IMG/VR virus record: IMGVR_UViG_3300043436_004224
Length of the DNA stretch: 64,000 nt
Strand: one strand, 5' to 3'
Source: an uncultured virus (IMG/VR IMGVR_UViG_3300043436_004224)
Lineage: Duplodnaviria; Heunggongvirae; Uroviricota; Caudoviricetes
Part shown: positions 47,700-64,000 of the stretch, piece by piece
Position numbering within the stretch: position 1 is the first letter of the stretch
Layout of the letters: every line of letters starts with the position of its first letter
Notes under the pieces: generated by a model
Seen by the model: the letters and a program-made list of their open reading frames with translations, nothing else
The model's database searches: none
What the model was told of the DNA's origin: nothing
Program-made: the position numbers and the translations under genes

Positions 47700-48257
47700 A
47701 CACGCCCATAGATTGCTTGACAAATTTTTAGAATTATGCTACGTTTGTCCTATCAAACAGAAAGGGGAAGCCACATGGACTTCTATGGAAACCCAGAAAT
47801 CAAAAAGGCCTATCAGGCCGGCTTCAATGATGGACTCCAATGCGGAGTAGATAATGCACGAGAGTTCGAATACATTACTGAAGAGCAGGCAGAAGATTTG
47901 CTGACTGAACTAGTGAAAGAGGAAAACTAATTATGACAATGGACGAACTGATGGAATACGTTTTGAGGGAACTACCTGACGCCGTTTTTGGTGAGGACAA
48001 TGCATCAGGCGAGATTGTTATCGCGACAGGTCTCATAGAAAAATCTGATGGCGAGCCACTAGAAAGAATTGAGGACTAGTCATGGCGCTTAGTCACAAAG
48101 AGTTCACCCAGATAATGGAAGAACTAGAACGAATTGAAAACGAGCCAGCCACAGAGTGCGCGTGCCGTAACTGCGCCGAGGTCGAGCTTTACAGCAGACT
48201 TTATTGCAGAGACTGCTATGACATGGCTTGCTCAAAAACAGACGAGGACATGCACTA

Positions 48258-48731
48258 ATGGGACTAGACATGTATCTAGAAGCTAGACGTTTTGTCAGCG
48301 GATGGAGTCACACCAAGGAAGAAGAGAAAGCAATCTTTGATTCTCTAGTGAAGGCAATCAACATGGACGGCCTGCATGATGAGAGATTTGCCACGGTAAA
48401 CGTGAACGTCGCTTATTGGCGTAAGGCTAACCACATCCACAACTGGTTCGTGCAGAACGTGCAAGACGGCGAGGATGACTGTAAGCAATACCACGTCACT
48501 CGTGAAAAGTTGTTAGAGCTTGAGCAACTTTGTAGAGACGTTTGTCAGGCCGGCACGGCTGATGTGGCGAGCGCGAAGTTGCCTCTTGCAACGGGGTTCT
48601 TCTTTGGGTCAGACCAGTATGACGAATACTATTTCGAGCAGACCGACTGGACAGCCAAACGGATTGCCGAGCTAATGATAGCTATCCCAGATGACGGCAT
48701 GCTGGACTTCTACTACCAGTCAAGCTGGTAG
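48258..48731 (+). CDS. Hypothetical phage protein (MGLDMY...YWRKAN family)
   Basis: Start ATG 48258; YWRKANHIHNWF, GFFFGS, YQSSW; related to 49212-49730. Confidence 0.7.
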   Translation: MGLDMYLEARRFVSGWSHTKEEEKAIFDSLVKAINMDGLHDERFATVNVNVAYWRKANHIHNWFVQNVQDGEDDCKQYHVTREKLLELEQLCRDVCQAGTADVASAKLPLATGFFFGSDQYDEYYFEQTDWTAKRIAELMIAIPDDGMLDFYYQSSW

Positions 48732-48795
48732 GCCTGCGTAGCTAACGGCGAGCGCATCCCAAATCAACGGCGTGCGCTCGCTGTATGCTATACTC

Positions 48796-49095
48796 ATGCG
48801 CTCAATAGAACTGCACCACTTTCAGACCGATAGGGACGTAGAGCTTGCTCTAACCTCTGGACTAGCACTGCCAGAACAGCTAGCCATGACGGACTGCACT
48901 GAGTGCGACGCAAGACTGTGTTACTCAGTCTCAGACTCGAACTTTGTACCATTTGTACTAGTGATTGATGAAAGCGACCAAGATTGGGTTCTATGCGAAG
49001 ATTGCGCAAGCCCAATACTTACGCTGACAGACACCTTTTTCCCCCCAGCAGTGGGTAGCCACTTTTCTGATTACGAGGATTTTGAGCCTTTTTGA
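48796..49095 (+). CDS. Cys-motif hypothetical protein, leaderless
   Basis: TATGCT 6 nt before ATG; two CxxC. Confidence 0.55.
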   Translation: MRSIELHHFQTDRDVELALTSGLALPEQLAMTDCTECDARLCYSVSDSNFVPFVLVIDESDQDWVLCEDCASPILTLTDTFFPPAVGSHFSDYEDFEPF

Positions 49096-49211
49096 TGTAT
49101 CCACTTTTTACGACAAGGTAGACACGCCCTAAAAATACTCGTCAAAAGAACTTGCGAAATGTCAGTAGACCCCTGTATAGTTGGACTTACCAATGAAAGG
49201 GGAAATACCAA

Positions 49212-49730
49212 ATGGGTATGGATGTTTATGGCAAGAAACCAACCAACGAGGTTGGCGAGTATTTTCGCAGAAATGTTTGGGGTTGGCATCCTCTATGGGA
49301 TTATGTAGAGAACAATCACCCAGAGATTGCGGAGTTAGTTGAACACGCTCACAGTAATTCTGGAGATGGCTTGGATGAGGAGAACTCAAAAAAGTTGGCA
49401 CAACTTTTGATGAACGACTACAACTCATCTAAAGTTATTGACTATGTTGATGAGCGTAATCGTCAGCTTTCAGAGCTTCCTTTTGAGGATTGTCAAATCT
49501 GTAAGGGAACAGGAATTAGAAGTGATGAACTCGGCGTTGAAAGTGGCTGGACAACTAGAGAACTAGCACCAGACATAGCAATCATTGTTGGTCGCACTCA
49601 TGGTTCTTGTAATGCTTGCCAAGGAGTAGGCAAGCGAGAGAACTGGGCTACCAACTATTTCCTAGAGCCTGACGACATAAAAGAGTTTGCCGAGTTCCTT
49701 GAGAACTGCGGTGGCTTTGAGATTTGCTAA
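49212..49730 (+). CDS. Hypothetical phage protein with CxxCxGxG motifs
   Basis: AAAGGGGAA RBS; YFRRNVWGWHPLW, CQICKGTG, CNACQGVG. Confidence 0.7.
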   Translation: MGMDVYGKKPTNEVGEYFRRNVWGWHPLWDYVENNHPEIAELVEHAHSNSGDGLDEENSKKLAQLLMNDYNSSKVIDYVDERNRQLSELPFEDCQICKGTGIRSDELGVESGWTTRELAPDIAIIVGRTHGSCNACQGVGKRENWATNYFLEPDDIKEFAEFLENCGGFEIC

Positions 49731-49743
49731 GGGGGTTTAGAAA

Positions 49744-49935
49744 ATGGAAAAACTTTTTTGCTTTAGTTGCGAGGACGAACTTACTGCGAAAAACACTTCG
49801 TCTTACGAGGGGTTTGACAGTTCGGGCTATCTAGTAGCTAACAGGATTGCGAAAATTGGTAAGGACATGTTTATCAAGTGTGACCCATGCTTTGATGCGG
49901 ACATTGACAATTACCTAGACAATCTCCAAAGCTAA
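49744..49935 (+). CDS. Small Cys-motif protein
   Basis: CFSC...CDPC; AAGGGGG RBS. Confidence 0.55.
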   Translation: MEKLFCFSCEDELTAKNTSSYEGFDSSGYLVANRIAKIGKDMFIKCDPCFDADIDNYLDNLQS

Positions 49936-50155
49936 GACCTAGGGAAAGACCCCTGCCTAGCAGGTTCAACGCCCGAAGCAACCTGAGCCAAGTTGTAAAA
50001 CTGGCTCACTAAATCTTTCAGGGGCGTGTATCCACTTTTTACCTGGGACCCCCCGAAAAAACTTTTTACGAAATAAGTTTGACAAAAGATGAAAAGTATG
50101 GTTTACTTCTTACATGGCAAAAAGCCATAGACACAACAAGGAAAGGGGGAAGTCA

Positions 50156-50761
50156 ATGACTTCCACAGCTACACCAAAGATTGTAGGCAAGGCACTCTAC
50201 CTAGAGCTAATTGCCGACAACACCATAGACGCAGACAAGCTAAGAAAAGTCTTGGGTTGGCAACACGCAGGCACAAGACAGATAATTATTTTCCCAGAGT
50301 ATCAAGACGATACAGGGAAAGTTTGGGGTTCAGTAGTTATGAATCGCATTATCTCTAGTCACTCACCTAGAAGCCAATGGGACATTACTTTTATTGACAG
50401 GTATAGACCAAACATAGGTGCGTTGAGGGTGGACGACAGTTATCACAACTACCCAGAATACGAGCGTCCAGTTTGGGACACACTAACAAATAAAGAGAAG
50501 TTTGATTCTCACAAGTTGGCGTTGGATTCAACCTTGAGAAAAATTATTTTGTCAAGTGATTCCGAAATAGATTCAACTGGCAATAGAAAATTGACAGCCC
50601 TACAAGCCTTGAGGGTTAGAGATAACAAGCCAATCGCAGTAGAGATTACTGACGAGGACATGGTTGAACTTCACATGAAGTCAAAAACTCCACAGGCAGT
50701 AATTCGCAGAATCAACAAGGTTCGTGAATCCATTTCTAGTTTCCCAGCGAAACTCGCATAA
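50156..50761 (+). CDS. Hypothetical protein, first gene of AAA/VWA unit
   Basis: Start moved to ATG 50156 after AAAGGGGGAAG RBS; TTGACA at 50079. Confidence 0.65.
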   Translation: MTSTATPKIVGKALYLELIADNTIDADKLRKVLGWQHAGTRQIIIFPEYQDDTGKVWGSVVMNRIISSHSPRSQWDITFIDRYRPNIGALRVDDSYHNYPEYERPVWDTLTNKEKFDSHKLALDSTLRKIILSSDSEIDSTGNRKLTALQALRVRDNKPIAVEITDEDMVELHMKSKTPQAVIRRINKVRESISSFPAKLA

Positions 50762-50803
50762 CCTAAAAATAGATACAGACACAACAAAGAAAGGGCGGAA
50801 GCC

Positions 50804-51865
50804 ATGTATCAACAAAAAGTAATAGCAGAACACACAGCACCAGACCTAGCAGGAATCAACTATGACCAACTGTTAGAACAACTTGTCGGGGCAGTAAGGG
50901 GTTCAAGTTTCGGAGTGACAACTTCAATTCTTGACGAACACCTAACACCAGCAGGTAGAGCAACACTACGCACTAAAGGTAAAGCAGGTTCAACACTTTC
51001 AACTCCAGCTAAACTAGATGAAGCAGAGCCAGCGAAGCTAGAGGAAGTTATGGAATCAGTTGCGAACTTAGAGGGAGAGGAATCTTACTCACGACCTAAT
51101 GGCGACCTTTACTATGGTCGCAAGTGGGGCGACAATGTAGATGTTGAAGTTCTACGCAAAGCCAGAGAAGCAGGACAGTATGTAATGCTCTATGGAGTTC
51201 CTGGAACTGGAAAGACAGCGTGCGTTGAAGCTGCTTTTCCAGATGAACTTTACACAGTTCTTGGTTCTGGCGACACCGAAGTTTCTGACTTGGTAGGTGG
51301 CTATGTCCAAACTCCAAGTGGCGGTTTTGAGTGGGTGGACGGAAGTTTAGTAAAAGCAGCTTCCGAGGGTAAAGTTCTACTGATTGACGAAATTGGTTTG
51401 ATTGACCCGAAAGTTCTTTCGGTTGTCTATGGACTAATGGACGGCAGAAAAGAAATTACAATCACACAGAATCCAGAGCGAGGCACAGTAAAAGCTAAGG
51501 AAGGATTTTTTGTAGTTTCGGCAACTAACCCTAATGTCGCAGGAGTTCGTTTGTCAGAGGCACTTCTATCTCGTTTCGCTATTCAGGTTGAAATGACTAC
51601 TGATTGGAACTTGGCTAGGAAACTTGGAGTTCCGCAGAGTGCGGTTGTTGCTTCACAGAATCTAGCAAAGAAACTAGAAAATGGTGAAACTTCTTGGTCG
51701 CCACAAATGCGAGAGTTGCTTGCGTTCCGTGACTTGTCCAAAATGTTTGGAACAAAGTGGGCAGTCCAAAACTTGCTTGCTTCCGCACCAGAGATTGACA
51801 GACCAATCGCTAGTGATGTATTCACCAGAGTATTCGGAGAGGCAATCCTGCCAGCAAAGATTTAG
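50804..51865 (+). CDS. MoxR/CbbQ/CobS-like AAA+ ATPase
   Basis: Walker A GVPGTGKT, Walker B LLIDE, ATNP, EALLSRF. Confidence 0.9.
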   Translation: MYQQKVIAEHTAPDLAGINYDQLLEQLVGAVRGSSFGVTTSILDEHLTPAGRATLRTKGKAGSTLSTPAKLDEAEPAKLEEVMESVANLEGEESYSRPNGDLYYGRKWGDNVDVEVLRKAREAGQYVMLYGVPGTGKTACVEAAFPDELYTVLGSGDTEVSDLVGGYVQTPSGGFEWVDGSLVKAASEGKVLLIDEIGLIDPKVLSVVYGLMDGRKEITITQNPERGTVKAKEGFFVVSATNPNVAGVRLSEALLSRFAIQVEMTTDWNLARKLGVPQSAVVASQNLAKKLENGETSWSPQMRELLAFRDLSKMFGTKWAVQNLLASAPEIDRPIASDVFTRVFGEAILPAKI

Positions 51866-51996
51866 TGAGTGGGTTGTGTCCTCACTAAAGGGTGGGGAAA
51901 CGCAAGGTTTTTTCTTGTTTGATTTGACTTGCGTTTCTCCCCCAACTACTATACAATTTAGACATAACAAAAAAACGCCAAATGAAAGGGAAGCAA

Positions 51997-53850
51997 ATGG
52001 CACACTACAAAGTAAAAGGTAAGTCAAGACTTACAACACGAACAACTACAACCAACCCAGAGTGGCTAAGAGTTTGTTCACAGATTGGTCGCTTGGTCAA
52101 TGATTGGTCATGGCGTTCAGATTTAGTTGTCTATGGTGGAGAGGATTCTGCCGAGGGCAAAGCTATCGCTGCTTTTTATTCAGACATAGCAGAGATTGAA
52201 GTGAACTTGCCGAAAGCGTTTGGAGAACTTACGCCAGCAGATTTTGTCGGCGACTTGACTAAAAAAGAAACGCAGTATGAGTATCCAATGGTGACAGGCG
52301 TTCTGTATCACGAAGCACTACACGCACGCCACACGAATTGGGACACTTCAATTTTGTCAGAGGCACTAGACCCTAATGAGCAAAGAGCTTTTATGTTGCT
52401 AGAGGAATCACGAATTGAAGCAAAGGGAATCAAAGAGCGACCAGAGCTTAGAAACTTCTTGCGTGCTTCTGCTTTAGACATGGCACTAGACGAAGTGACT
52501 ACAGACACACTCGCAGGTTTGGCTAGTGATGTTTGGAATACAGCACGCCTAGCAGGACTTTCAGTTTCAAGAGTGGATTCAGGAGTTCTTGAAGTTTCTG
52601 ACATTACTGACATTTACAGAGAAGTAGTTTCAGTTCTTGGTCAGGACTTGTTTGACGAACTAAGAAAAGTTTGGATTGAGTTTCAGGCACTAGGCGTTCC
52701 ACAGATTGAGCGAGCTATTGAACTTGCTAAGAAGTGGGTTGAACTATTGCGTGAATCAGACCCAGAGGGCGAGCCAGATTCAGGTTCGGCAGGTGACATT
52801 TTCGGCGAGCCAGATGAATCAGAGGGCGACAGCGAGGGTGGAAGCGGAAGTGAACTGTCTGACACCATGAAAGACATGATTGAAAAACTTTCCGAATCTG
52901 CTAGTCACTCGGAGATAGAAGCGAGAGAGGCACTTGCCCAACAAGAGCAACAAGACAAGTGGGGCGAGGAATCAAAAGCAAGGCAAGAGCAAGCAAAGAA
53001 TAACAACCAACGCAAAAACATAGCCAAGCAAATCTTTCACAAGCCACACTCCCAAGAGGGTTCGGGTTCTAACTCGTCTGTATCCTCTCGCAGACAGCCG
53101 ACAGGGACAGAGCGAGCAAGTGCGGTAGAGATTGCTAAGTCATTAGACAAGGCAAAGTATCGTGAGCGTTCGGTTCATGTTCGCAAAAGTCAGACACCAC
53201 AGGGCAAGCTGATTATGAGAAACGCCGTCCAGAATAGGGCAGTTGAATCTATTGGCAAGCGTGGAGAGTTGCCAGCGTGGAAGTCAAAGACACGCAAGCA
53301 CACAGACGACCCAACGCTAAGGCTTGGAATCATGGTGGACATTTCAGGTTCTATGGGTTCTGCTATGGAAGCTATGGGACAGACAGCGTGGATTATGTCC
53401 GAGGCAGGTCGCAGGATTCAAGCTGAAACGGCTATGGTGTATTACGGCTCTGGCGTGTTCCCAACTCTAAAGCGTGGACAGCGTTTGAGCGAGGTGACGA
53501 TTTACACAGCACCAGACGGAACTGAAAAGTTTACCGAAGCGTTTGAAGCGATTGACGGCGAGCTTGGACTAACTTTTGGGGACGGCGTGCGTATGTTAGT
53601 TGTTGTGTCGGACGGAAACTACACAGGCACAGAACTACAGAGAGCAACCGAACTACTAAGAGAGTGTAAACAAAACGGCGTGGCGGTTCTTTGGATTACA
53701 CCGAGAGGTTGTAATGGCATGGGGGCGAGGTCAATAATTTCTGGTTCGGCGTGGGGAGTTCACTTGGACGACCTAGACACAACGGAGATTGCGAGGCAAG
53801 TCGGCAAGTCGGCAAGCGAAGCATTGGGTCGGGTGGGTTCACTCACCTAG
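51997..53850 (+). CDS. VWA-domain partner protein (CobT-like) with HEXXH motif
   Basis: HEALH..H, LEESRIE, acidic linker, MIDAS DISGSM, VVSDG; start ATG 51997 after GGGAAG; promoter TTGCGT-N17-TACAAT. Confidence 0.85.
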   Translation: MAHYKVKGKSRLTTRTTTTNPEWLRVCSQIGRLVNDWSWRSDLVVYGGEDSAEGKAIAAFYSDIAEIEVNLPKAFGELTPADFVGDLTKKETQYEYPMVTGVLYHEALHARHTNWDTSILSEALDPNEQRAFMLLEESRIEAKGIKERPELRNFLRASALDMALDEVTTDTLAGLASDVWNTARLAGLSVSRVDSGVLEVSDITDIYREVVSVLGQDLFDELRKVWIEFQALGVPQIERAIELAKKWVELLRESDPEGEPDSGSAGDIFGEPDESEGDSEGGSGSELSDTMKDMIEKLSESASHSEIEAREALAQQEQQDKWGEESKARQEQAKNNNQRKNIAKQIFHKPHSQEGSGSNSSVSSRRQPTGTERASAVEIAKSLDKAKYRERSVHVRKSQTPQGKLIMRNAVQNRAVESIGKRGELPAWKSKTRKHTDDPTLRLGIMVDISGSMGSAMEAMGQTAWIMSEAGRRIQAETAMVYYGSGVFPTLKRGQRLSEVTIYTAPDGTEKFTEAFEAIDGELGLTFGDGVRMLVVVSDGNYTGTELQRATELLRECKQNGVAVLWITPRGCNGMGARSIISGSAWGVHLDDLDTTEIARQVGKSASEALGRVGSLT

Positions 53851-53939
53851 ACCTAAACGGAGTGCTTGCCCAGCGGTTGAGCGAAAGTCAGGACTTCCCC
53901 CCTTTGACCTGATAATAGTTCCCAACGGACAAGACACTA

Positions 53940-53990
53940 GAAACCCCTATCAAGTGCTTCCCCCAAGTCTTGGTAGGGGTTTCGCCTTTC
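53940..53990 (+). terminator. Long hairpin or terminator after VWA gene with C-rich loop
   Basis: GAAACCCCTATCAAG-TGCTTCCCCCAAGT-CTTGGTAGGGGTTTC. Confidence 0.7.
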
Positions 53991-54206
53991 TCGGTTTGAC
54001 GGACGAGATTGGGTGGAATCTGAATCCCTGGCACAGACTTTTTACGAAAGATGAAAAGTCACCAGCAGAAAAAGCTGACGAAGGCGTATCCACTTTTTAT
54101 CTGGCTAAAAACTTTTTTGACAAAACACTTGCTTTTTCTGTAAACCCTGTTAGGATTGGAACTATCCAATCGGAACGAAACAGAAGTAGTTCCAGAGGGG
54201 GGATTT

Positions 54207-54557
54207 ATGGCTAAGGTCATTTCCCGAACAGCCCCAGAGGTTGCGAAAGCAACTCCAAAGGTTGTCAAAGTTTCACGAAAAGTCGTGGAACTAATCAGCG
54301 AACTTTCCGAAGTTCGTGCTACATACAACTCGGCGAAAGCCAGAGTTGAGGAACTTCGTGACGAAGTTCTTTCCCAAGTTGGGCGTTCCAATTTGACCCT
54401 TGTCCACAACAGCATTGAGGTCGCTCGTATCGTTGAGAGTTCTCCTGTGCGTGTAGATGAGGAGTTCTTGAAAGAGAACTATCCAGAGGCTTACCAAGCT
54501 TCTCTAAGGGCAAAGCCCCAACACACGATTCGCTCTGTCACACGCAAAGCGAACTAA
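54207..54557 (+). CDS. Hypothetical coiled-coil protein; paralogue of 61953-62294
   Basis: EVRA...TL.HN.IE.ARI...D.E.L...(Y/F)PEA shared; start ATG 54207. Confidence 0.7.
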   Translation: MAKVISRTAPEVAKATPKVVKVSRKVVELISELSEVRATYNSAKARVEELRDEVLSQVGRSNLTLVHNSIEVARIVESSPVRVDEEFLKENYPEAYQASLRAKPQHTIRSVTRKAN

Positions 54558-54719
54558 AGAACTGGGCGGGCAGGGCGAAAGCCCTGTCCCCCATTTCATT
54601 TTTTATTTGACCTGACAATGTATCCACTTTTTACCAAAGGAAATGGACACGGAAAAAAGATACCGAAAATGTCAGGGACTATGCTAAGATTGGAACTACC
54701 ACAAAGAAAGGGGAACACC

Positions 54720-55070
54720 ATGAGAGGCGAGCCATTAGAGCTTGACGAAGTTGCTGGATTATCTCTAACAGTATTGGGCGTGCTTGTTGAGGCATACATC
54801 AAAGAGGGATACAGCGACCCGACAATGTATAGAGCAATACGGGCTTCAACCGAACTGGCTAAAAACTTCAAGGCACGGCTAGAACTAGACGGACGGGACA
54901 CGGACGGCGTGGACGACTTGATTACTAACCTAGAGCTAACGGCTATGGAATCTGGCGAGGTAGTAAACCGAATCATAGAGCAGAACGGCTGGCAAGAAAC
55001 GGCTGGCGAGTGGAGTAGCCCTGCTAGTATGACTTGTGATAACGACTGCGAACATGACGGCAAGGAGTAG
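54720..55070 (+). CDS. Hypothetical protein
   Basis: AAAGGGGAA RBS before ATG 54720. Confidence 0.6.
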   Translation: MRGEPLELDEVAGLSLTVLGVLVEAYIKEGYSDPTMYRAIRASTELAKNFKARLELDGRDTDGVDDLITNLELTAMESGEVVNRIIEQNGWQETAGEWSSPASMTCDNDCEHDGKE

Positions 55071-55077
55071 GGACGGC

Positions 55078-55377
55078 ATGGACTTTCAGACTGCGTTCGG
55101 CGAGGTTGTGCGTGAGCAACGGCGTGCTAATGAGATTACAATGCGAAGCGTGACGGATAGGGGACACCTAGCGTTGGGATACCTGTCCGAAGTGGAACGG
55201 GGACACAAAATGCCCTCTAGCCTAATAATTGCGTCCATAGCAGACGGACTGGGTATAGACGCAAGCGAGCTGATTATTCAGACGGGTATGCGTATGTCCA
55301 ATGTTCCTGAAAGCCCTGAAAGCCTGTTCAAGCTAAGGGACAGAGATTGGGCTAATCAGTATTCAGATTTGAGATAG
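55078..55377 (+). CDS. XRE-family HTH regulator, ClgR-like
   Basis: FGEVVREQR...LALGYLSEVERGHKMPSS.IIASIADGLG resembles actinobacterial ClgR (SLGYLSEVERG.KE.SS). Confidence 0.8.
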   Translation: MDFQTAFGEVVREQRRANEITMRSVTDRGHLALGYLSEVERGHKMPSSLIIASIADGLGIDASELIIQTGMRMSNVPESPESLFKLRDRDWANQYSDLR

Positions 55378-55524
55378 AGAAAGCCCCCCTGACAAAAGTT
55401 AGGGGGATTTTTTCTTGGCTGGTAGTGTATCCACTTTTTGCTGAACATTTTTTGTTTGGTTTTTGTCGGGGGTAGGGTATAGGATTTGATTGTTATAAAA
55501 ACTCCAACAGGAAAGTAGGGGAAA

Positions 55525-55761
55525 TTGAGTTATTATCCAGAGGGTTCTATGGCTGGTTCTGGCATAGATTCCGTAGAAGTTCCGTATGACGAGTTTGTCT
55601 GCGAAGCTGACGATTGTGGCAAGGTGAACGAAGCTAGTGAAGCTATGACAGACGACTATGGCAATTACGAAGTTGAGTGCCAGTTCTGCGGTAGCTTTTA
55701 CTTTAGAAGTTCTATTGCCGAGGACAAGGCAGATTGGGCAGCGAATAATTATGATTACTAA
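55525..55761 (+). CDS. Small acidic zinc-ribbon protein
   Basis: CEADDC...CQFC; TTG start after GGGGAA. Confidence 0.6.
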   Translation: MSYYPEGSMAGSGIDSVEVPYDEFVCEADDCGKVNEASEAMTDDYGNYEVECQFCGSFYFRSSIAEDKADWAANNYDY

Positions 55762-55918
55762 TCCAAAACAGGGGACACCAATAAAAAACAGCAAGGGCGA
55801 ATTACGATACGAATACACTTGCCCGAAGTGTTTTGACGAATACAGGGTGGACGAAAAGACACACGCTTGGATTCAGACCTTAGACAGACTGCCTAAGTGT
55901 TCGCCTTGCTACTTGTAG
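55751..55918 (+). CDS. Small zinc-finger protein
   Basis: CPKC...CSPC; ATG 55751. Confidence 0.55.
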   Translation: MITNPKQGTPIKNSKGELRYEYTCPKCFDEYRVDEKTHAWIQTLDRLPKCSPCYL

Positions 55919-56101
55919 CCTAAAAAGTTTCCCCCGAATAATCAGGAACAGCGATTCCGATTCGGGGGATTTTTTTATGCCGTCAATGTGTATCCACTTT
56001 TGCTGCGGCAGGGTAAAACTTTTTATGTGCGGTGAAAAGTCGTAGGTAGGTGATAGTATTCAAGTATCAAGCAACACTAACCACGAACAAAGGGGAACAA
56101 G

Positions 56102-56413
56102 TTGAAAAGATTGCCTAACTACAAGATTGGCGCGGAGATTAGTGCGCTAAACACTTTCACGAACTACAATGGCACAATTAGCGCCGTTCGGGACGAGAAT
56201 AATTACAGGATTACACACTGGAACACTGTAATTCTTGATTACAACACTGACACCAACGAGATTATTTCGCTACAAGATAGCTACATTAGCCAGACAACCA
56301 GCGCGCTAGTTGGGCGAATCTTGAGGGCGTTGCCATACGCTTCGGTTGAAAGATACTTGGGCTACATGACGCCGTCAAAAGATAAGCGCCGTTTGGTCGG
56401 TATGCTTCGATAA
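56102..56413 (+). CDS. Hypothetical protein
   Basis: Single-gene unit with AAAGGGGAA RBS and terminator. Confidence 0.65.
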   Translation: MKRLPNYKIGAEISALNTFTNYNGTISAVRDENNYRITHWNTVILDYNTDTNEIISLQDSYISQTTSALVGRILRALPYASVERYLGYMTPSKDKRRLVGMLR

Positions 56414-56554
56414 AAAGCCAAAAAGTTAGCCCCGCTTCGGCGGGGTTTTCTTTTTCCGTGAAAAGTTGCGCCGGTCGCGGCGTGTATCCACTTTTTGATG
56501 AAAGCTTTTTGCGGATCCTTGATCTGTATAATTGTTGATGAAGGGGGAACACCA

Positions 56555-56869
56555 TTGAATAATTTCTCAGAGCGAATCATTGCCAATACCGAAGATGGAC
56601 GCCGTGAAGTGCGCGTCCTGCGTCTTGCGGTAAGTCTTGGCGACGACTTGGCATACATTGATTGGGAGCCAAGCGGGGAGCTTTACTTTATCAAAGTCCC
56701 CGTCGAGTATCGCCGTCAAGGAATCGCTACAAAGCTATGGCAGGACGCTCAGGAACACGCGAGAAGCTTGAACTTGCCCGCGCTAACCCATAGCGAATAC
56801 AGAACTGACGCGGGCGATTCTTGGGCTAAGTCCCTAGGCGAAAAACTTCCACCAAGAATCCGCGCTTAG
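56555..56869 (+). CDS. GNAT-family acetyltransferase
   Basis: IKVPVEYRRQGIATKL (motif A); TTG 56555 after AAGGGGGAA. Confidence 0.75.
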   Translation: MNNFSERIIANTEDGRREVRVLRLAVSLGDDLAYIDWEPSGELYFIKVPVEYRRQGIATKLWQDAQEHARSLNLPALTHSEYRTDAGDSWAKSLGEKLPPRIRA

Positions 56870-56988
56870 TTTTTTGTAGCCAGGTGTATCCACTTTTTGA
56901 CGAGGCGACACGCTTGCTTGCGGGTTCTTGCTTTTGTCGGTGGGTTGGGGTAAAGTCAAACTAACCAAGCAAGAGGGAAGGAAACAAA

Positions 56989-57204
56989 ATGATTGGTAGA
57001 AACAAAGATGCGGAAACAGCTTTTGATATGGCAATGAAGTTGCTGAACAACCCAAGTGAGGAAGTTCAACAGCAAGTCTGGGACAAGTGCCACGCTGACG
57101 AAGTAATCCAAAGGTCGGTAAGGCTTTACCTTTACAGCGAGCCAAGCTACACACCAAAGGCTCTATACAACCTTCACCAAAAACTCGCCGAGTTGGTGTC
57201 CTAA
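56989..57204 (+). CDS. Hypothetical protein
   Basis: GAGGGAAGG RBS. Confidence 0.6.
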   Translation: MIGRNKDAETAFDMAMKLLNNPSEEVQQQVWDKCHADEVIQRSVRLYLYSEPSYTPKALYNLHQKLAELVS

Positions 57205-57345
57205 TGGTTGTTCGCCCGCTGGAGAATACAGTTTGCTATCAATGCCCTAAGAAGATTATGGCAATGGTTGGTGCGGTTCACCCGCTATGCGTTGAGTGTC
57301 AAGAAAGTTTTGACGATTGGTTTGAACACGAGCTAGGAGTTTTCA

Positions 57346-57549
57346 ATGGCTAAGCAAGTTTATTTTGTTGTTGCGGTGGACTTAGATGAGTGCGTGCCGT
57401 TTATAGATGATGACACCTTTACAGCAAGGTTCAGTTCGGCAGAGCAAGTTTGGGACACCGAACTACAAGAGTGGCAAGAAGACCCTGACCAAGAGTTTTA
57501 CGATAAAGCGTTGAAGATTTTGAACACCATACCTTTAGCGAAAGACTAG
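57346..57549 (+). CDS. Hypothetical acidic protein
   Basis: AGGAG RBS. Confidence 0.6.
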   Translation: MAKQVYFVVAVDLDECVPFIDDDTFTARFSSAEQVWDTELQEWQEDPDQEFYDKALKILNTIPLAKD

Positions 57550-57552
57550 TCA

Positions 57553-57864
57553 ATGAAACACAAAAAGAGTAAAGTTCAAGGCAAGTCTAGGCACGCCGAG
57601 TATCTTCGCCGAGTAGATAACGCCGATAGAGTTGCGGTAATGCTAAGGGGCATAACTTTATTTTGCGCTTTTATTTTTGTAATGAGGATAGTCGCTGGCG
57701 TTGATTCAGTTTCAGAATACCTAATCCTTTATGCGGTTGTGTTTGTGGGCGGGGTTAGTGCTTCGCTTGCCGAATACTTTTTGTTTAGGGCTTACCAAAG
57801 TCGCTACTCAAAAAGTCGCCGACAAAGTTTTTGGGATTTGTTCAACACCGAACTTTCCAAATAA
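57553..57864 (+). CDS. Two-TM membrane protein
   Basis: Two hydrophobic segments. Confidence 0.6.
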   Translation: MKHKKSKVQGKSRHAEYLRRVDNADRVAVMLRGITLFCAFIFVMRIVAGVDSVSEYLILYAVVFVGGVSASLAEYFLFRAYQSRYSKSRRQSFWDLFNTELSK

Positions 57865-58002
57865 AACTTCCCGCTAGGACTTCCCCCCTAGCGGGATTTT
57901 CTCTTTCCAGCTGCGTATCCACTTTTTGATAGAGATTTTTTTGTGTGCGTTTTGTCGGTGGACTATGCTATGGTTGAAGTATCCAAACAAAGGGGAAGTA
58001 AA

Positions 58003-58194
58003 TTGAAGACAGATTCAAGAATAGCAATAGTTTCAGAGCTACCAAACTGCGACTTCTGCGGTGAACACGCTCGCTATGACGGAGCAACCAAACTTGGACC
58101 TTGGGCTTTTATGTGCCAGAAGGACTGGGTATCTCACGGAGTAGGGCTTGGGCTTGGCAAAGGTCAAGTTCTAATGAAGGAAGGAACTAAGTAA
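58003..58194 (+). CDS. Small Cys-motif phage protein
   Basis: CDFC...YDGATK.GPWAFMC; TTG 58003 after AAAGGGGAAG. Confidence 0.65.
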   Translation: MKTDSRIAIVSELPNCDFCGEHARYDGATKLGPWAFMCQKDWVSHGVGLGLGKGQVLMKEGTK

Positions 58195-58395
58195 ATGGCG
58201 ACAACAGTTGGAGAGCTGATTGAACAGCTAAAGACGCTGGACCCCGACACAACAGTTGTGTTTCAGTATTTGACACACGAACACACCGACTTTTCAATTG
58301 ACGATTTTGAGTCAAAAGCCGAGGCACTTGACTACACCAACTTCGCTGATGAAATGTCTATCACGATGAACGAGTGGCTCGCCGAAATGGAGTAG
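58195..58395 (+). CDS. Hypothetical protein
   Basis: TVGELIEQL..LDPD. Confidence 0.6.
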   Translation: MATTVGELIEQLKTLDPDTTVVFQYLTHEHTDFSIDDFESKAEALDYTNFADEMSITMNEWLAEME

Positions 58396-58566
58396 CCACG
58401 CGACACCAAAGATTCCCCCGCGACCCCCGCGGGGGTTTTCTTTTTTGCCGGAAGGTAGCCAGGTGTATCCACTTTTTGATTCGGCTGCCGAAAGGGTTTT
58501 GTAAAAGTATTTGCTTTTTTCTTTTTGTGTAGTAAGATGAAACTCTAACGAAAGGGAGGTTCCTAA

Positions 58567-58959
58567 ATGGGAGCAAGAACAACTTGGAAAATAAAGACTA
58601 ATGATTCGGGAGCTATTACTTGGCTTTACAGTCATTGGGGAGGCGACAGTAAGTTTGACACCACTAAAGAGGCGTTGGACTTGGCTATGCCTCGCTGGGA
58701 GGATAGGACTTATGGAGCTAGGATTTTTATCAGTAGCGTAATTGGTAATTCTTGGAGTTCACAGACAGGGTTTGGAATTACTTCAACCCTTGACACAGAT
58801 TCCAACCCGTTTGAGGAAAGCTACACGCCTTACACAATTGACTTTGTGCGGAAAGTAGTGATTCTTGAAGGTGTTCTCGGAGAGGACTGGGAGTTAGGCT
58901 TTGACGAGTTCACTAGACTAAACAGCGAAGCCGACTTGCTACTTCAAGGGACAAGGTAA
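58567..58959 (+). CDS. Hypothetical phage protein (LYSHWGG motif)
   Basis: GGGAGGT RBS. Confidence 0.65.
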   Translation: MGARTTWKIKTNDSGAITWLYSHWGGDSKFDTTKEALDLAMPRWEDRTYGARIFISSVIGNSWSSQTGFGITSTLDTDSNPFEESYTPYTIDFVRKVVILEGVLGEDWELGFDEFTRLNSEADLLLQGTR

Positions 58960-59241
58960 ATGGGAAACTTACAAGCTCAAGAAATTGCGAGCAACACCGA
59001 AATTACACTTGAACAGCAACTAACTTGGCACTTACAAGGTAATCACTATCCACCGATTCCAGTTAGTATGGTTCAGCCTTGTGTTGAAGCAATTCAGGCT
59101 TATTGGGAAGATGAGCTAGACACGGAGATTCAGTTGCCCGAAGGTGTTTTGTATCGGGGGAAGGAAACAGCCCCCGCTAGAGAAATAATCATCAATCATC
59201 ACTTAGACGCTTGGTGTCAAGATGACGAAGATGAGTTTTAG
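58960..59241 (+). CDS. Hypothetical phage protein
   Basis: WHLQGNHYPP...HHLDAW. Confidence 0.65.
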   Translation: MGNLQAQEIASNTEITLEQQLTWHLQGNHYPPIPVSMVQPCVEAIQAYWEDELDTEIQLPEGVLYRGKETAPAREIIINHHLDAWCQDDEDEF

Positions 59242-59444
59242 GATTAGCCCCAACTAACCCCCCAAATGCGGGCAATAGAGAGATTCCCCCTTTCTATTGC
59301 CCGTTTTCTTTGCGTGCCGGTAAGGTATCCACTTTTTACTGGGCTTGATTTTCTTTTTATGAAATACTTGTTTTTCTTTGTTAGTGTGTTATTGTTTATC
59401 TGTTGGGAAGTTCCCGACAAGAAACAAGAAAGTTGGGCAGAGAA

Positions 59445-59672
59445 GTGAAGTTTGTAATTAGGAGAGCAGTCTTAGGGTTGGTGGCTTTGCCAGTAATCGC
59501 TGGGACTTATGTTTTTATGTTTGTATTGCTAGGTTCGCTAAACAATACTTTATGGGGACTAACCCTAGATGAAGTTTGGAATAACGGACTTTTGATTGGT
59601 TCGGTTAGTGCGGTTGCTTTCGCTTTCGCAACTCAGATTGACAAGCTAATTGCTAGATTGGTTGGTGAATAA
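59445..59672 (+). CDS. Membrane protein
   Basis: Two TM segments; GTG 59445 start assumed. Confidence 0.55.
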   Translation: MKFVIRRAVLGLVALPVIAGTYVFMFVLLGSLNNTLWGLTLDEVWNNGLLIGSVSAVAFAFATQIDKLIARLVGE

Positions 59673-60297
59673 TGACTATCATTGTAATCAACCTAGACGG
59701 CTCAAGAACGCCTTACGGCTATTCGGCTCACTCATCAGACATCACCGATTACTATGACCGCCTAGTTGCGGAAAATAGAATCACCGCCTATGAGGTGATT
59801 TCCTAATGGGAGATTTTATTCTATTAGCGTTTGCTATCGGACTTATCTTTGGTGGCTTTACTCTTATGTTTTACAGTTTACTAACTGTAAAAAGAGATAA
59901 CTACCGACCGAAGCATACACGCTCAACATACCTGCCCAACAGGAAAAGATAGTTCCCCCAACTATCGGAAAGCCCTCGCCTTTGTGCGGGGGTTTTCTTT
60001 TTTCTGTTTTTTTTTTCTGACGAGAGCTGGTATCCACTTTTTGATGGAAGTTTTTTCGGCTTCCGTTTTGTCGGGCATTTATGCTAGTGTTAGAGCTACC
60101 AATTAGAAAGGTTATCAAATGGGAAAGTTAGTTGCAGAGCTAGGAACAAAAAAAGTCTTATCTCTAGTTGAAGGCGAAACAACAGTTTCGGCTTACTTAC
60201 TCACGGAGAGTGAAGAGTTTCTTGCTGTCCTAAAGAGTGCCGACAGTCTAGAGCAGGTTCTAGATTGGGTAGAAGAAAACTACTAGGAAGGTAGAAA

Positions 60298-60648
60298 ATG
60301 AAATTAGCTCTAAAGATAACGCCAGATGGCGTAGCAACTGAAATTGACATAGCCACGGACGAATTGAAGAAACTACAAGACGCGGTTGATGGTCTAATTC
60401 AACCCGTTGATTTTGAGTTCGGCTCTAGGTATTTGACAATGTGGGTGAATGAAGAAGGACTACTTAGAAACGATTTGGAAATGAATCCTGTCGCCTTTCT
60501 GTTTTACTCTTCACCGATAATGGGAAACATTATCATAACTGGCGCGCCAGATGAAGATGGCGAAACAACAAGCCTAGACAGCGCGACAGAGTTAGATGTT
60601 CTAAAAAGGATTTGTGAAAAGTTCCTAAGTTCTGTTGAACAAGTCTAA
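60298..60648 (+). CDS. DUF3846-like protein
   Basis: LQDAVDGLIQ...MWVNEEG.....N..A...I.GNIIITG..DEDGETTSL. Confidence 0.75.
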   Translation: MKLALKITPDGVATEIDIATDELKKLQDAVDGLIQPVDFEFGSRYLTMWVNEEGLLRNDLEMNPVAFLFYSSPIMGNIIITGAPDEDGETTSLDSATELDVLKRICEKFLSSVEQV

Positions 60649-60820
60649 ATAAAAAACTAAAGCAACCCCGCCTTTGCGCGGGGTTTCTTTTTATCTTCCG
60701 TAAAAAGTCTGCCGTCAACTGGTATCCACTTTTTGATGCCTCTCTTAGTTGCGGTTGCTTTTTTCTTGCGTTTGTGTTATCTTGATTTGGCTTATAGCAA
60801 CACTTAGTAGAAAGAGAAAA

Positions 60821-61759
60821 ATGAAAAGACAAATTAGTATCGCGCTCGCGGTGGCATTGCTTGCCGTTGGGACTACCCCCGCTAGCGCTGGAGTTCAAGG
60901 TGAAGTTAGTTCTTGGGGTCTAGATAGAGTAGACCAAACAGCGGGAACAGCAACACTAGATAGAAGCTACAAATACCCCGACAGCGCTGGCGCTGGAGTT
61001 CGCGTGTATGTTTTAGACACGGGAGTTCTTGGAACGCTACCTGGTTTCGGCGGGAGAGTTCTTACAGGGTTTGACACTCTCGCGGGACTTAGAACGCCAC
61101 ATCAGGCTAATCTTGACTGTAATGGTCATGGAACAGCCGTAGCTGGAATCATTGCTAGCGCGACTTATGGAGTAGCTAAGAGCGCAACCATTGTGCCAGT
61201 TCGCGTTGCGGACTGTAAAGGTGGAATAGTTCCTGCCAACATTGTCAAGGGAATTGACTGGATAATCAAGAATCACCCGCGCGGTACCCCTGCCGTTGTG
61301 AATCTAAGTATCGCGGTTGGTAAGACTAAGTTGGTTGATGACGCGATTACAAAACTCTACGGGATTGGTATAGTTTCAGTAGTTTCCGCTGGTAATCAAA
61401 ACATAGACGCTTGTCGTCTAAGCCCCGCGGGAGCAACATACGCCCTTACCGTTGGGTCTATAAACATGAACGACCAAAGAACAAATACTTCTAACTTTGG
61501 CGAGTGTGTTTCTATGTACGCCCCTGGTGGTTTGATTACTACCGAGGGAACAAATGGTTTGCCCTCAACAAGAAGCGGAACATCTTTTTCCGCGCCTCAT
61601 GTTGCTGGAGCAATAGCCTTGTATCTTTCAAGCAACCCTAAGGCAGACGCCCCCGCGACTGTTTGGGAGATTACAAGAAATGGTTTGAGTGGAGCTGTTG
61701 CTGACGCTAAGAGCGTTAGAGGCAATGTTCTACTCAACACCGCCTTTCTAAACAAGTAA
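60821..61759 (+). CDS. Secreted S8 subtilisin-like serine protease (aqualysin/proteinase-K-like)
   Basis: Signal peptide, SWGLDRVDQ, catalytic D (VLDTG), H (GHGT), S (GTSFSAPHVAG); start ATG 60821. Confidence 0.92.
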   Translation: MKRQISIALAVALLAVGTTPASAGVQGEVSSWGLDRVDQTAGTATLDRSYKYPDSAGAGVRVYVLDTGVLGTLPGFGGRVLTGFDTLAGLRTPHQANLDCNGHGTAVAGIIASATYGVAKSATIVPVRVADCKGGIVPANIVKGIDWIIKNHPRGTPAVVNLSIAVGKTKLVDDAITKLYGIGIVSVVSAGNQNIDACRLSPAGATYALTVGSINMNDQRTNTSNFGECVSMYAPGGLITTEGTNGLPSTRSGTSFSAPHVAGAIALYLSSNPKADAPATVWEITRNGLSGAVADAKSVRGNVLLNTAFLNK

Positions 61760-61952
61760 GCAATAAGCAAAGACCCCCTGCCGTAATTGGCGGGGGGTTT
61801 TTTGCTAGCTGAAGGCGTGTATCCACTTTTTGACCTGTTGAAAAAACTTTTGCGGAATTGCTTGTTTTATCGGATTAGTATGCTATGATGATTACATCAT
61901 CAAAAGATGATAATCCAAGCAACAAAAGCAACACCTAACAAAGGGGAATAAG

Positions 61953-62294
61953 TTGACAACATCAACAACAACCGCAACAACAACCGCAACCAAGGCAACA
62001 AAAGTTGTTCTAGGACAAGTTCGGGAATTGACTGAGGTTAGGGCAGAAATTGCCAGACTGGAAAAACTAAAGTTGGCTCTCACCGCTGAAATTGAAAAGG
62101 CTTTTGAGGTTGACAAAGAAGCAAAGACCTCACGCTTTTCAACCCTTACTCACAATGCCATAGAGTTCGCAAGAATTGACTGGAGAAGCCGTAAGGGTAT
62201 TGACTCAGAGAAGTTAGCCCTAGAGTTTCCTGAAGCGTTTGAGGCTTGCCAGAAGCCAACTGTTTACTCAGTAATAGTTTCCTTGTTCAAGTAA
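61953..62294 (+). CDS. Hypothetical coiled-coil protein; paralogue of 54207-54557
   Basis: Shared motifs; TTG start after AAAGGGGAA. Confidence 0.7.
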   Translation: MTTSTTTATTTATKATKVVLGQVRELTEVRAEIARLEKLKLALTAEIEKAFEVDKEAKTSRFSTLTHNAIEFARIDWRSRKGIDSEKLALEFPEAFEACQKPTVYSVIVSLFK

Positions 62295-62497
62295 AAGGGA
62301 GAGAGAAGCCCCCGCCGAAAGGTTGGGGGCTTTTCTTTTGCCAAAAAGTTTTACGGCGACTCGCGGGCTGTATCCACTTTTTGATTAGTCTTCCAGGTGT
62401 ATCACGGGCTTAGGCTTTTTGTCTGTGGCAAATAGTATGCTAATGATTACTAGCCAATTGGTTAGTAGTTGGGCAACAATTATTAGTTTGGAGAATC

Positions 62498-62701
62498 ATG
62501 AACATTAGTTCAGATACAAGGTCAACGCAAGAGTTGACTGTTGCGCTTATGGCACTAAACACTACAACCCTTATTCCAACTGGATACGGGGTATCTCAGG
62601 ACTGTGCAACAGCTATTGAGTTCTTGAAGCAACGCTCAGAACAGATGGCTAATGTTGCTAAGGAAATTGAGAAGCTACTAGGGGGAGTTCACCGTGGCTA
62701 A
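62498..62701 (+). CDS. Hypothetical protein
   Basis: GGAG RBS. Confidence 0.55.
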   Translation: MNISSDTRSTQELTVALMALNTTTLIPTGYGVSQDCATAIEFLKQRSEQMANVAKEIEKLLGGVHRG

Positions 62702-62933
62702 GTTTGTAATCACTAATGGCAGAGTTGGTAATGACAACGGTAATCAGCAATTTGTAGAACACGCCTATTATCACCCTATGGGCAGGAAAGCCCTATTGAA
62801 CAAGATTCAAGACCTAGCTAATAGAAGCGGATTAGAGTCTTGGGCAGAGCTATACACGGAATGGAAAGATGAGAATAGGACTGGCAAAACACCGAATCGA
62901 ATCTTCCCTAGAAAGCCGTATTCAACTTACTAA
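62694..62933 (+). CDS. Hypothetical protein
   Basis: GGGGAG RBS; followed by terminator at 62956-62985. Confidence 0.55.
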   Translation: MAKFVITNGRVGNDNGNQQFVEHAYYHPMGRKALLNKIQDLANRSGLESWAELYTEWKDENRTGKTPNRIFPRKPYSTY

Positions 62934-63684
62934 CTAGATACCTCAGTAAGTAATGACCCCCTAGCTATACGGTTGGGGGGTCTTTGCTATGCGGTATGCG
63001 GTTGAATAGTTTGGATTCATGAATGCTTGATCATGCGGATAGCAAAAACAATTATTGAATTAGTTTTTTGATAGATCAGGTTGACCCCCCCATGAAATAA
63101 GCCAAAAATAATTAGCGGGCGGGCGGGCATACCCCCCTCAGAAACTTATAGTTAGTAATAAACTTACTTAGGTCTTTTCTAGTTCTTTCAGCTAGCCCTC
63201 ATAGACGCCCCCCTGTAAGCCTCACTAGAAAGACACCCAACTTGGACAGCTAATGCTAGACGCCCCCTCAGAGTAGTAGTCATAGATTCTAAAGTCATGA
63301 CCCCCTAAGAAAGACAACCTTGTCTTGTAAAGTTCTTAGTAATCTAGTATCCTTGACAATAGATAGTAATTTTTATTTTTCTAGCTTGAAGCAAGGACTA
63401 ATTTTTATAAAGAACAATTTTGTATGGCGTATTCAACAAGAATTGTTTTTGGAAGACCCCTTCACTTTTAGGAAACAATTTTGAAGTCCTTCAATTTCAT
63501 ACGGCTACCCTCTCACCCGTCAAAAGCAGTAGACGCTAAGGTACTAATTCTTCCGTTACGGACACCCCCCTCTTTTTAAAAAACGCAATTACCCCCTGCC
63601 CCAAAACGACAAAAAATCCGGAAAAAATTTTTCAAAAAAATTCGTCCAATAGCCCGATATCTACATAGTGCTAAAATGTACCTT

Positions 63685-64000
63685 ATGCCCCGTAGAACAG
63701 CGCGAAGTCAGCCGCTACCCCCAGCCGAAGTTGAGTACCTAAACTCGCTTACAATAAACGCCCTTATCCCGAGAGTCAACGCACTGTATAACGCAGGGTG
63801 GGCGCTTCAAGCCATCGGGGAATGCCTATCCCCTAGACGCCCTAGATCCACGGTTCGCAGCTGGGTAGTTAAGTCTGCTGAGCTTGGGGCCCAAGAAGCA
63901 GTAGACGCCCCTACCCTCCCATCTCCTGTACATAAAACAGCAGCCGATGGGTATCAGAAACGCCGCCCTACATCTCCAGGTATCCCTGAGGACACTTTTG
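63685..64000 (+). CDS. HTH DNA-binding protein, leaderless; runs off window end
   Basis: TGCTAAAAT 7 nt before ATG; MPRRTARSQPL...LYNAGWALQAIGECL...RSTVRSWV. Confidence 0.65.
   Translation, partial: MPRRTARSQPLPPAEVEYLNSLTINALIPRVNALYNAGWALQAIGECLSPRRPRSTVRSWVVKSAELGAQEAVDAPTLPSPVHKTAADGYQKRRPTSPGIPEDTF

Follow-up and report, generated by a model that had tools for sequence, protein, structure and literature searches.

A block of small gene units in the genome of an uncultured caudoviricete virus (IMG/VR record IMGVR_UViG_3300043436_004224) is punctuated by copies of a short intergenic sequence, GTATCCACTTTT, hereafter the box. We analyzed this block within a 64,000-nucleotide stretch of the record, hereafter the window. 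The box is a real, strongly selected cis-element, phased to the promoters downstream of it and forming the exact boundary of whole units in indels between relatives. Comparative sequence analysis leads us to propose, at slightly less than an even chance, that it is the site of a phage-encoded activator acting in class I geometry, and that it doubles as the point at which units are swapped.

The box occurs in the window in 15 exact copies on the + strand, at the very starts listed by a first-pass annotation of this DNA; scanning both strands of the window yielded no further exact copy and none on the - strand. Related records are designated here by G and L numbers. One of them, G001, is 99.98% identical where it overlaps the two ends of the window, and the two together form a circle of ~147 kb. 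G001 has four copies only, which are the window's last four, and no exact copy in these ~147 kb lies outside the array. Matches with up to two mismatches number 23 in the window, against a mean of 6.8 and a maximum of 12 in shuffled sequences. The box-to-box spacing is 402 to 1097 bp with a single exception of 4058 bp, in agreement with the unit sizes (0.4 to 1.1 kb and one of 4 kb) first described. As also described, every copy (15 of 15) is intergenic and precedes a predicted promoter of the host-sigma type, and most follow a terminator: a hairpin lies at most 80 bp upstream of 9 of the 15 boxes by a strict script, and of ~12 by eye. The boxes at 49097 and 56886 come after a stop codon, without a hairpin; the former begins one base past the stop codon of the open reading frame (ORF) at 48796..49095. 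Tandem copies at the first box are also present in L003, G013 and G023. The box is asymmetric rather than palindromic and is the sole identical part between units, the promoter and hairpin sequences varying from one to the next. Beyond the 12-mer, the only near-invariant position is +12 (T in 14 of 15 copies). A longer form ending in GGCGTG, earlier called frequent, is complete in 3 of the 15 copies only, and a likeness to the DnaA box did not hold up, as it is missing in five of six box classes and the window has no exact copy of TTATCCACA.

The phage is a freshwater actinophage whose host group is the Actinobacteria. All 20 sequencing runs that contain the stretch are labelled lake water. 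Among named records, the metagenome-assembled actinophage DSL-LC01 is one of the nearest (terminase 73%), along with large phages of Microbacterium, Pumpernickel among them (61-64%). The array is followed after 4 kb, beyond the window end, by the genes for terminase, portal and head. Related loci were collected through the AAA gene of the array (71) and through the helix-turn-helix (HTH) gene downstream of it (35); among them, L001 is identical to the phage and L002 differs by one base.

The position of the box relative to the predicted promoters was analyzed with 257 copies from 16 genomes or loci. A promoter was called for 213 of them, and the distances from box start to -10 hexamer peaked at 45-46, 55-58, 63-69, 74-79 and 86-89 bp. 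Because circularity had to be avoided, a second promoter model was trained on 115 intergenic regions of box-less relatives only. It called a promoter for 173 of the 257 boxes, and after removal of the main peak (62-71), 59 of 72 boxes were in phase (R of 0.48 at 10.5 bp), the phase being equal to that of the main peak. Phasing was kept when each of the 69 downstream gene families contributed one site (off-peak R of 0.53, n ~30), and none of 2000 sets of jittered anchors reached the observed value. There was no phasing of the box to the start codon (R of 0.05, n = 172) or of the terminator to the -10 hexamer (R of 0.10, n = 96), and the terminator was weakly phased to the box (R of 0.21).

If the -10 hexamer starts at -12, the box centers lie near -51, -62, -72, -83 and -93, with -72 as the modal position. 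For comparison, the optima of class I activation by CRP are -61.5, -71.5, -82.5 and -92.5 (PMC4132738). A site upstream of the -35 element and helically phased resembles one for an activator or for contact with alphaCTD, the RNA polymerase alpha subunit's C-terminal domain, and not a promoter-overlapping operator or stoperator. The earlier proposal that the box is the operator of one regulator is thus supported in modified form, as a phased site upstream of -35, while the binders tested for it fail (see below). In addition, 33% of 117 box promoters had a -35 element starting with TTGAC; the figure was 59% for 32 promoters without a box in the same phages (p 0.013) and 52% for 40 promoters in box-less phages (p 0.039). 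A weaker -35 element behind the box favors activation over repression.

The same geometry would also suit the opposite sign, in which a later phage protein bound at the box contacts alphaCTD, holds the polymerase and shuts the early block off. Early host-takeover genes usually need such a shut-off, as in T5 and SPO1, which counts for this possibility. The modal position of -72 does so too, as it equals the site of the phi29 protein p4 on the early A2c promoter, where p4 binds at -71.5 and represses through alphaCTD (PMC3445967). The -35 elements behind the box are weaker, however, not stronger. As trapping of the p4 type needs a near-consensus -35, this counts against a shut-off, as does the location of the best co-varying protein (see below) among head genes, which suits delivery at infection, even though late synthesis would fit a shut-off. 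We regard repression through the box as quite unlikely.

In the relatives, the array occupies the same place in the genome, with common cargo families in a different order. Box copies are near-identical within one genome and differ between genomes, i.e., the boxes of an array turn over in concert. Six classes were distinguished: class A, GTATCCACTTTTT (window, L003, G003, G021 and G022); class B, GTATTTATTTTTT; class C, GTATTCATTTTTT; class D, ATTTTTCATTTTTTCC; class E, TTATGTATTTTTTCCT; and class F, TAGTTATTTTTTCT, which is similar to class B. Each class ends in A-Y-T5/6. In the complete genomes G004, G008 and G015 the box is confined to the array, and among the matches listed in a motif scan of viral contigs, 24 of 27 records followed up were searched, and each had one chance copy. 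In G005, G009, G010 and G016 the array is present and the long box is absent. Proteins encoded on both flanks of the array are mostly 73-98% identical between G005 and the window phage, against mostly 28-76% within it, so the whole array module has been exchanged. As a separate observation, GGATC often occupies the box slot in G005, G009 and G010, and in the box-less relatives L065, L009 and L010 GGATC or GATC words often lie between terminator and promoter.

A protein that binds the box might be expected to follow its class. The phage proteins named as binders in the first-pass annotation do not, their identity or grouping ignoring the box: the HTH protein at 63685 is 86% identical in a box-less relative versus 57-58% in same-box relatives; the XRE protein at 55078 shows no grouping by class; and the box-less G005 has the HTH protein at 42869 with 73%, WhiB with 79% and the serine recombinase with 91% identity. 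Likewise, none of the paralogs at 54207 and 61953, ORF 48796, ORF 50156, the AAA and the VWA proteins groups by class, and the second downstream HTH protein does not track it. No array gene or nearby HTH gene did so.

The leading candidate is a 1,036-amino-acid (aa) ORF (L075:11499-14609) located between portal/Dps/ParB-like and capsid genes, ~9 kb past the end of the window. Over the C-terminal 570 aa, comparisons of class B genomes with different backbones gave 42% (G004-G008) and 39% identity, compared with 23-35% across classes, where B-F pairs are highest. The tree of the candidate, with 14 taxa, requires 6 class changes (minimum 5, shuffle mean 7.7; uncorrected p 0.02), or 4 changes with a minimum of 4 when B and F are merged (uncorrected p 0.004); for 11 neighboring genes, the candidate's own N-terminal part included, p was at least 0.28. 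In a blind test, G006 (class B) grouped with class B. All 16 long-box records whose sequence includes the head region (16 of 16) have the ORF, 15 of them recruited independently of it. For several box-less records the head region was checked through searches for markers: with both flanks found, the candidate is absent from G031/G052 and G037, which have no box, from G029, G048 and DSL-LC01, which have repeats of promoter type, and from six records with gene-internal A-tract words. Structure models (predicted local distance difference test scores of 74 and 87) comprise barrels resembling SH3/KOW, a bundle of helices and an alpha/beta domain of 234 aa (residues ~517-750). Foldseek gave no match in the PDB at E 0.001 for either model; the best Z score was 8.1 for the long model (root mean square deviation 2.2 over 61 residues, SH3/KOW type) and 4.3 for the 234-aa domain. 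ESM Atlas returned no usable match for two query proteins, and the 39 homologs are without exception unnamed or hypothetical.

The candidate may be packaged in the virion, its position in the head region being the one hint. In its most specific form, the proposal would be that a packaged protein of ~1,000 aa, with a domain of unmatched fold, arrives along with the first-entering DNA as the private activator of a lineage-specific box before each early promoter, that it would switch on only DNA with the cognate box, that the two change together between lineages, and that the box acts as the plug through which new units join the regulon; we consider this rather doubtful. Separately, the candidate's surroundings (L075 10137-17566, from portal to capsid) form a hypervariable block that encodes a ParB-like protein, the 1,036-aa protein and a 630-aa protein with a weak metallopeptidase-type match, and in G014 a protein of up to 3,556 aa. 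The large proteins of this block are probably packaged polyvalent proteins.

Several observations weigh against a phage-encoded activator, or against this candidate for it. The promoters of the phasing set are predicted; the signal of the window alone is weak, 6 of 15 copies passing the independent promoter model, and class A by itself gives an R of 0.45 with n = 26. Reversed boxes in the normal slot, which are awkward for an asymmetric activator site, occur in G004, G023, G014, L006 and 3 of 7 G043 sites, with the neighboring genes keeping their direction. The candidate was picked post hoc from ~120 shared genes, and its models contain no known DNA-binding fold. Classes B and F are each split over two candidate clades, with G043 (B-like) next to G018/G019 (F), while G042 groups with class D and shows a loose T-tract word only. 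Short, phased-looking boxes occur in some other lineages (L060) without a clear homolog of the ORF, and the records of the closest box-less relatives (G005, G009, G010 and G016) do not include its locus. Finally, tail proteins track class A as well, and the host could therefore be a common cause.

This last point leads to an explanation that dispenses with a phage binder, namely that the box is an UP-like A/T-tract for the host alphaCTD, or the site of a host transcription factor, with the class following the host, and that unit exchange, which needs identical boundaries, keeps the boxes uniform within a genome. alphaCTD occupies minor-groove sites near -53, -63, -73, -83 and -93, and optimized distal UP subsites consist of an A-tract followed by a T-tract (PMC3326320). 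The predicted box positions lie close to these, and the A-Y-T5/6 end common to the classes fits. A host factor would also account for the tolerance of reversed copies, for class A being tracked by tail genes and the box by no array gene, and for the need of first-entering DNA to rely on factors already in the cell. However, 13-16 invariant bases, G and C included, exceed what minor-groove tracts need, and the position seen most often lies two turns past the distal subsite. Moreover, close relatives with the same array carry no box, and a phage protein tracks the box classes across backbones. We therefore judge a purely host-dependent box unlikely.

The first-pass annotation had also suggested a crossover site, with gene-content differences beginning and ending at the motif. 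We compared three close genome pairs, which differ by 9 indels of at least 80 bp. Three of these run exactly from box to box: G022 has extra units of 528 and 437 bp relative to G021, and L098 an extra 956 bp (two units) relative to L095. In each, the shorter genome has one box's left flank fused to another box's right flank, 16-21 bases being shared; one of the boxes carries a mismatch. The other six (169, 397, 348, 134, 292 and 195 bp) lie away from boxes, two of them overlapping longer repeats of 67-85 bp. Gene adjacency recurred for 71 of 115 pairs within a unit versus 85 of 211 pairs across a box. We read the box-to-box indels, by analogy with the promoter(early)-stem-loop (PeSL) elements of T4-type phages, as short-homology recombination on a ready-made repeat and not as the work of a dedicated site-specific system. 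Among copies of this exact phage no box-to-box event was seen, and the assembled contigs of 4 of 23 runs, which drop rare forms, contained no joint at a box. The crossover proposal thus survives as a secondary role. That the box mainly serves integron-like recombination, by which cassettes are gained, lost and shuffled, is very unlikely: the exact indels and the better-kept adjacency within units speak for it, but two-thirds of the indels (6 of 9) occur elsewhere, box-less relatives have shuffled arrays too, reversed copies lack inverted neighbors, the phasing would go unexplained, and no recombinase is encoded in the array, nor was a tyrosine recombinase present among the scanned ORFs of the array and its flanks.

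The array coincides with a region purged of restriction sites. Nine 4-bp palindromes occur 13 times in total in 49097-62985, where ~400 are expected; outside the region the ratio of observed to expected is near 1. The last sites before it are ACGT 48836, GTAC 48955, TCGA 48937, TGCA 48895 and GGCC 48731, and GATC, ATAT and TTAA vanish earlier, from ~46 kb. Most palindromes end at most 550 bp before box 1 and return between ~63,030 and 64,240. Around the GNAT unit (56407-57026) lie 6 of the 13 palindromes that remain, and the GNAT gene lacks a homolog among the 15 related records tested; this unit is therefore probably a recent arrival. The desert is present in all long-box relatives examined (almost absolute in G014), weaker in box-less ones, and absent from the terminal repeat of Pumpernickel. 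In a related observation, no GATC occurs in any DNA examined of G004, G020, L047, L062 and L012, whereas the window phage avoids GATC in the array only, a pattern that points to host-specific restriction pressure.

The region at ~43.2-63.6 kb is probably a direct terminal repeat, as judged from homology, with the desert as its right 14 kb. In Pumpernickel, genes 1-52 are present a second time, as genes 302-353, with an offset of 166,132, corresponding to a terminal repeat of ~19,963 bp (by gene coordinates, the DNA being unaligned) that ends before the terminase. The homolog of its gene 1 in the window, ORF 43304, has a weak match to a terminase small subunit (phrog_2538, E 0.006). In three distant relatives, other repeated words start 70-110 bp before the homolog of this ORF, and in these and a fourth relative the words stay within the interval up to the HTH gene, bar scattered chance copies. 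The contig depths of the array (16.6) and its neighbors (15.3 and 16.3) are similar, all three contigs lying mostly inside the inferred repeat. As side observations, the words of G028, G030, G032 and G034 (GGGGTAAAAA, AGGTAAAAAA, AGTAAAAAGTAAAAA) spread across the inferred repeat, inside genes too, mostly without a promoter link, and in G030 their orientation flips near the right end; they are possibly a different, DNA-level signal. To the left of the desert, 43200-46000 is rich in palindromes (GATC 25, GGCC 28 and CCGG 23 per 4 kb), with many GGATC in coding sequence and ACTTTTAACGAA repeats, and relatives have the same peak; this stretch might act as a stop or pac region or as a decoy.

Since the desert fills the right 14 kb, the right end would enter first, in which case each gene would arrive 3' end first and need its own promoter. 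In T5-like phages, restriction acts only through sites in the first-step DNA (PMC10644984), from which a desert of the present kind would be expected. A DNA-entry signal had been among the early suggestions; the region does resemble first-entering DNA, and nothing ties the box itself to entry. That the box is a nick site of virion DNA, or an entry or packaging signal of a first-transferred segment, could draw on the coincidence of its range with the desert, on phage tf, whose 14 nicks lie at an asymmetric consensus, affect a single strand and are concentrated in one half of the genome (PMC3517423), and on the other A-tract words, which span the whole inferred repeat, genes included, in distant relatives. 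Known nick sites, however, are on one strand while boxes are reversed in several genomes, there would be no reason for phasing to the -10 hexamer yet not to terminators, and in T5 the stop signal forms a single cluster instead of recurring at each promoter (10.1101/866236). Such a signal is therefore hardly probable.

Returning to the activator proposal, the array would be a segment of the terminal repeat that acts before host restriction is disarmed, probably by entering first. Each unit would bring its own promoter and terminator, and a phage protein, for which the 1,036-aa ORF, possibly delivered with the DNA, is the leading candidate, would dock at the box and activate the promoter downstream. 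As 13-21 identical bases recur at every unit boundary, recombination between copies could add or remove whole units, and a unit landing at a box would fall under the shared control. This would explain how a large lytic phage keeps fast-changing host-takeover genes under a single control, the expression element being the swap point. If the protein is indeed delivered by the virion, this would be a rare tailed phage bringing its own sequence-specific activator for the host RNA polymerase. For a class of actinophage repeats that lack an explanation, the proposal provides a reading that can be tested, and it names a candidate regulator without a known fold.

Table 1. Features of the box array and of the surrounding region (positions in the window).
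Feature	Position	Strand	Remarks
Inferred ~20-kb direct terminal repeat	43240..63600	.	Approximate ends, homology-based (Microbacterium phage Pumpernickel)
Homolog of Pumpernickel gene 1	43304..44374	+	First gene of its terminal repeat; 35%, E 2e-46
Acidic Cys-motif ORF	48796..49095	+	Conserved; marks array left edge in relatives
Restriction-site desert	48956..63028	.	
One-mismatch box copy	49055..49066	+	Within ORF 48796..49095, 42 bp ahead of box 1
Array of 15 box-headed units	49097..62985	+	Terminator, box, sigmaA-type promoter, ribosome binding site, 1 to 4 genes
Box 1	49097..49109	+	Predicted -10 hexamer 79 bp downstream of box start
Box 2	50028..50040	+	-10 at +74; heads 4-kb ORF201-AAA-VWA unit
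201-aa ORF	50156..50761	+	In every array; no family match
AAA_5 (MoxR/CbbQ-type) ATPase	50804..51865	+	
VWA-domain partner	51997..53850	+	Weak VWA match; own box-free promoter ~51924
Box 3	54086..54098	+	-10 at +65 or +55, model-dependent
Box 4	54620..54632	+	-10 at +65, weak score
XRE-family HTH protein (HTH_3)	55078..55377	+	Box-less relatives have an XRE HTH too
Box 5	55427..55439	+	Behind terminator 55385-55406
Box 6	55990..56001	+	Sole copy with four T; behind hairpin ending near 55967
Box 7	56484..56496	+	Heads GNAT unit; behind terminator 56428-56447
GNAT acetyltransferase	56555..56869	+	
Box 8	56886..56898	+	No preceding hairpin; -10 at +65
Box 9	57915..57927	+	Behind terminator 57869-57896
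Box 10	58465..58477	+	Behind terminator 58415-58435; -10 at +68
Box 11	59325..59337	+	Behind terminator 59268-59304; -10 at +57
Box 12	60030..60042	+	Behind terminator 59967-59998; -10 at +55
Box 13	60722..60734	+	Behind terminator 60664-60685; -10 at +56
Subtilase S8	60821..61759	+	Signal-like stretch at N terminus
Box 14	61819..61831	+	-10 at +65
Box 15	62370..62382	+	Last copy
Last terminator of array	62955..62982	+	Followed by ~700 bp without clear gene
Two-HTH protein (169-172 aa)	63685..64000	+	Start only

The cargo announced in the first-pass annotation was matched for GNAT, subtilase S8, AAA_5 and XRE (the regulator called ClgR-like matching at the level of HTH_3), and weakly for VWA; a DUF3846 protein is also present by family-level match. 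The ORFs at 54207-54557 and 61953-62294 (113 and 116 aa) are paralogs; their coiled-coil family has 1-3 members per array in 20 of 21 arrays, is not restricted to phages with a box, and weakly resembles the C-terminal portion of a family of RecE-like exonucleases. Behind the VWA gene, the non-coding stretch 53851-53990 is conserved in five genomes and ends in a hairpin with compensatory changes; Rfam gave no match for it, and one sub-threshold match fell on a terminator. Another short non-coding element, 49935-50026 before box 2, is 91% identical in G005, occurs in L003 and L005, and is sometimes duplicated; it could represent a small RNA or a site for a protein. Another repeated word, (A/G)GACGCCCC(T), is found at 19196, 19788, 20596, 25457, 63204-63265 and 63900, within and before genes outside the array and in the gap past it. 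It is also a top repeat in G003 and G016 and possibly represents a middle or late promoter element. At 41806-42396, a Cys-rich 196-aa ORF present in nearly all relatives is only 30-38% identical everywhere, G005 included, where most of its neighbors are 65-89% identical; it is a core gene of hypervariable sequence, immediately to the left of where the genome is inferred to end. Beyond the window, the AAA-type ORF and the adjoining exonuclease-like ORF at G001 81792-83269 are 80-93% conserved. By eye, this pair looks similar to a Sak4-type annealing system, which could act on short repeats.

We found no account of the box or of a clade-wide array in the mainly open-access main texts searched, and the words "repeat" and "motif" are absent from the main text of the DSL-LC01 paper. 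Each ingredient has a precedent, namely class I geometry, PeSL shuffling and site avoidance of the T5 type. As with class I activation by CRP and with phi29 p4, there is a single site upstream of the -35 element at whole turns (~-62, -72, -83 and -93); the predicted core promoters behind it have weaker -35 elements. In contrast to both, the box is asymmetric, 13-16 bp long, invariant per genome, replaced between lineages, and present at ~15-25 promoters per block; no CRP-like or p4-like protein was found.

The stoperators of cluster A mycobacteriophages, which like the box are asymmetric, 13-14 bp long, numerous, oriented with transcription (15 of 15 in the window) and of a consensus that diverges by lineage, in their case along with the binder, number 20-30 genome-wide and are mostly not associated with promoters (PMC6550527). 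The boxes, in contrast, are confined to one 13-kb block and phased to promoters, and none of the HTH proteins compared co-varies with them. Microbacterium phages of clusters EC, EF, EG and EI have same-orientation intergenic motifs before non-structural genes, 14-30 bp from the start codon (PMC7302621); those repeats sit at a promoter or ribosome-binding-site position, whereas the box lies ~70-140 bp upstream of the start codon and is phased to the -10 hexamer. Unlike an integron, the array has no IntI beside it among the ORFs scanned, the box is no palindromic attC, and the units carry their own promoters. An array of DnaA boxes is set apart by the lack of any exact TTATCCACA-type 9-mer in the window. 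The one-strand rule of the nick consensus (tf, phiKMV and T5) holds in the window and fails in G004, G023, G014 and G043.

In PeSL elements of the T4-type phages RB49 and phi1, a terminator and an early promoter for host sigma precede small genes, and recombination between elements shuffles the modules (PMC2839356). The array likewise has a stem-loop, a host-sigma promoter and a ribosome binding site before small genes of a variable region, with modules gained or lost between elements. In PeSL elements, however, the homology is made up of promoter and stem-loop, while here a separate, invariant and phased box between terminator and promoter is the crossover point; no mini-circles of the PeSL type were seen in the contigs of 4 runs, which drop rare forms. 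The box array thus falls outside the PeSL, stoperator, integron and DnaA-box families, each of which departs from it in at least one tested feature. With the first-step DNA of T5 and BF23, which is a long terminal repeat with early genes, it shares a segment purged of restriction sites in a genome that keeps them elsewhere (PMC10644984; 10.1101/866236). The repeat and the entry order are inferred here, however, and no A1, A2 or dmp homolog or DnaA-box cluster was identified. T5 is not known to have a box at each promoter. By analogy, then, the box array may be described as a class I-like site in a PeSL-like array within T5-like first-step DNA.

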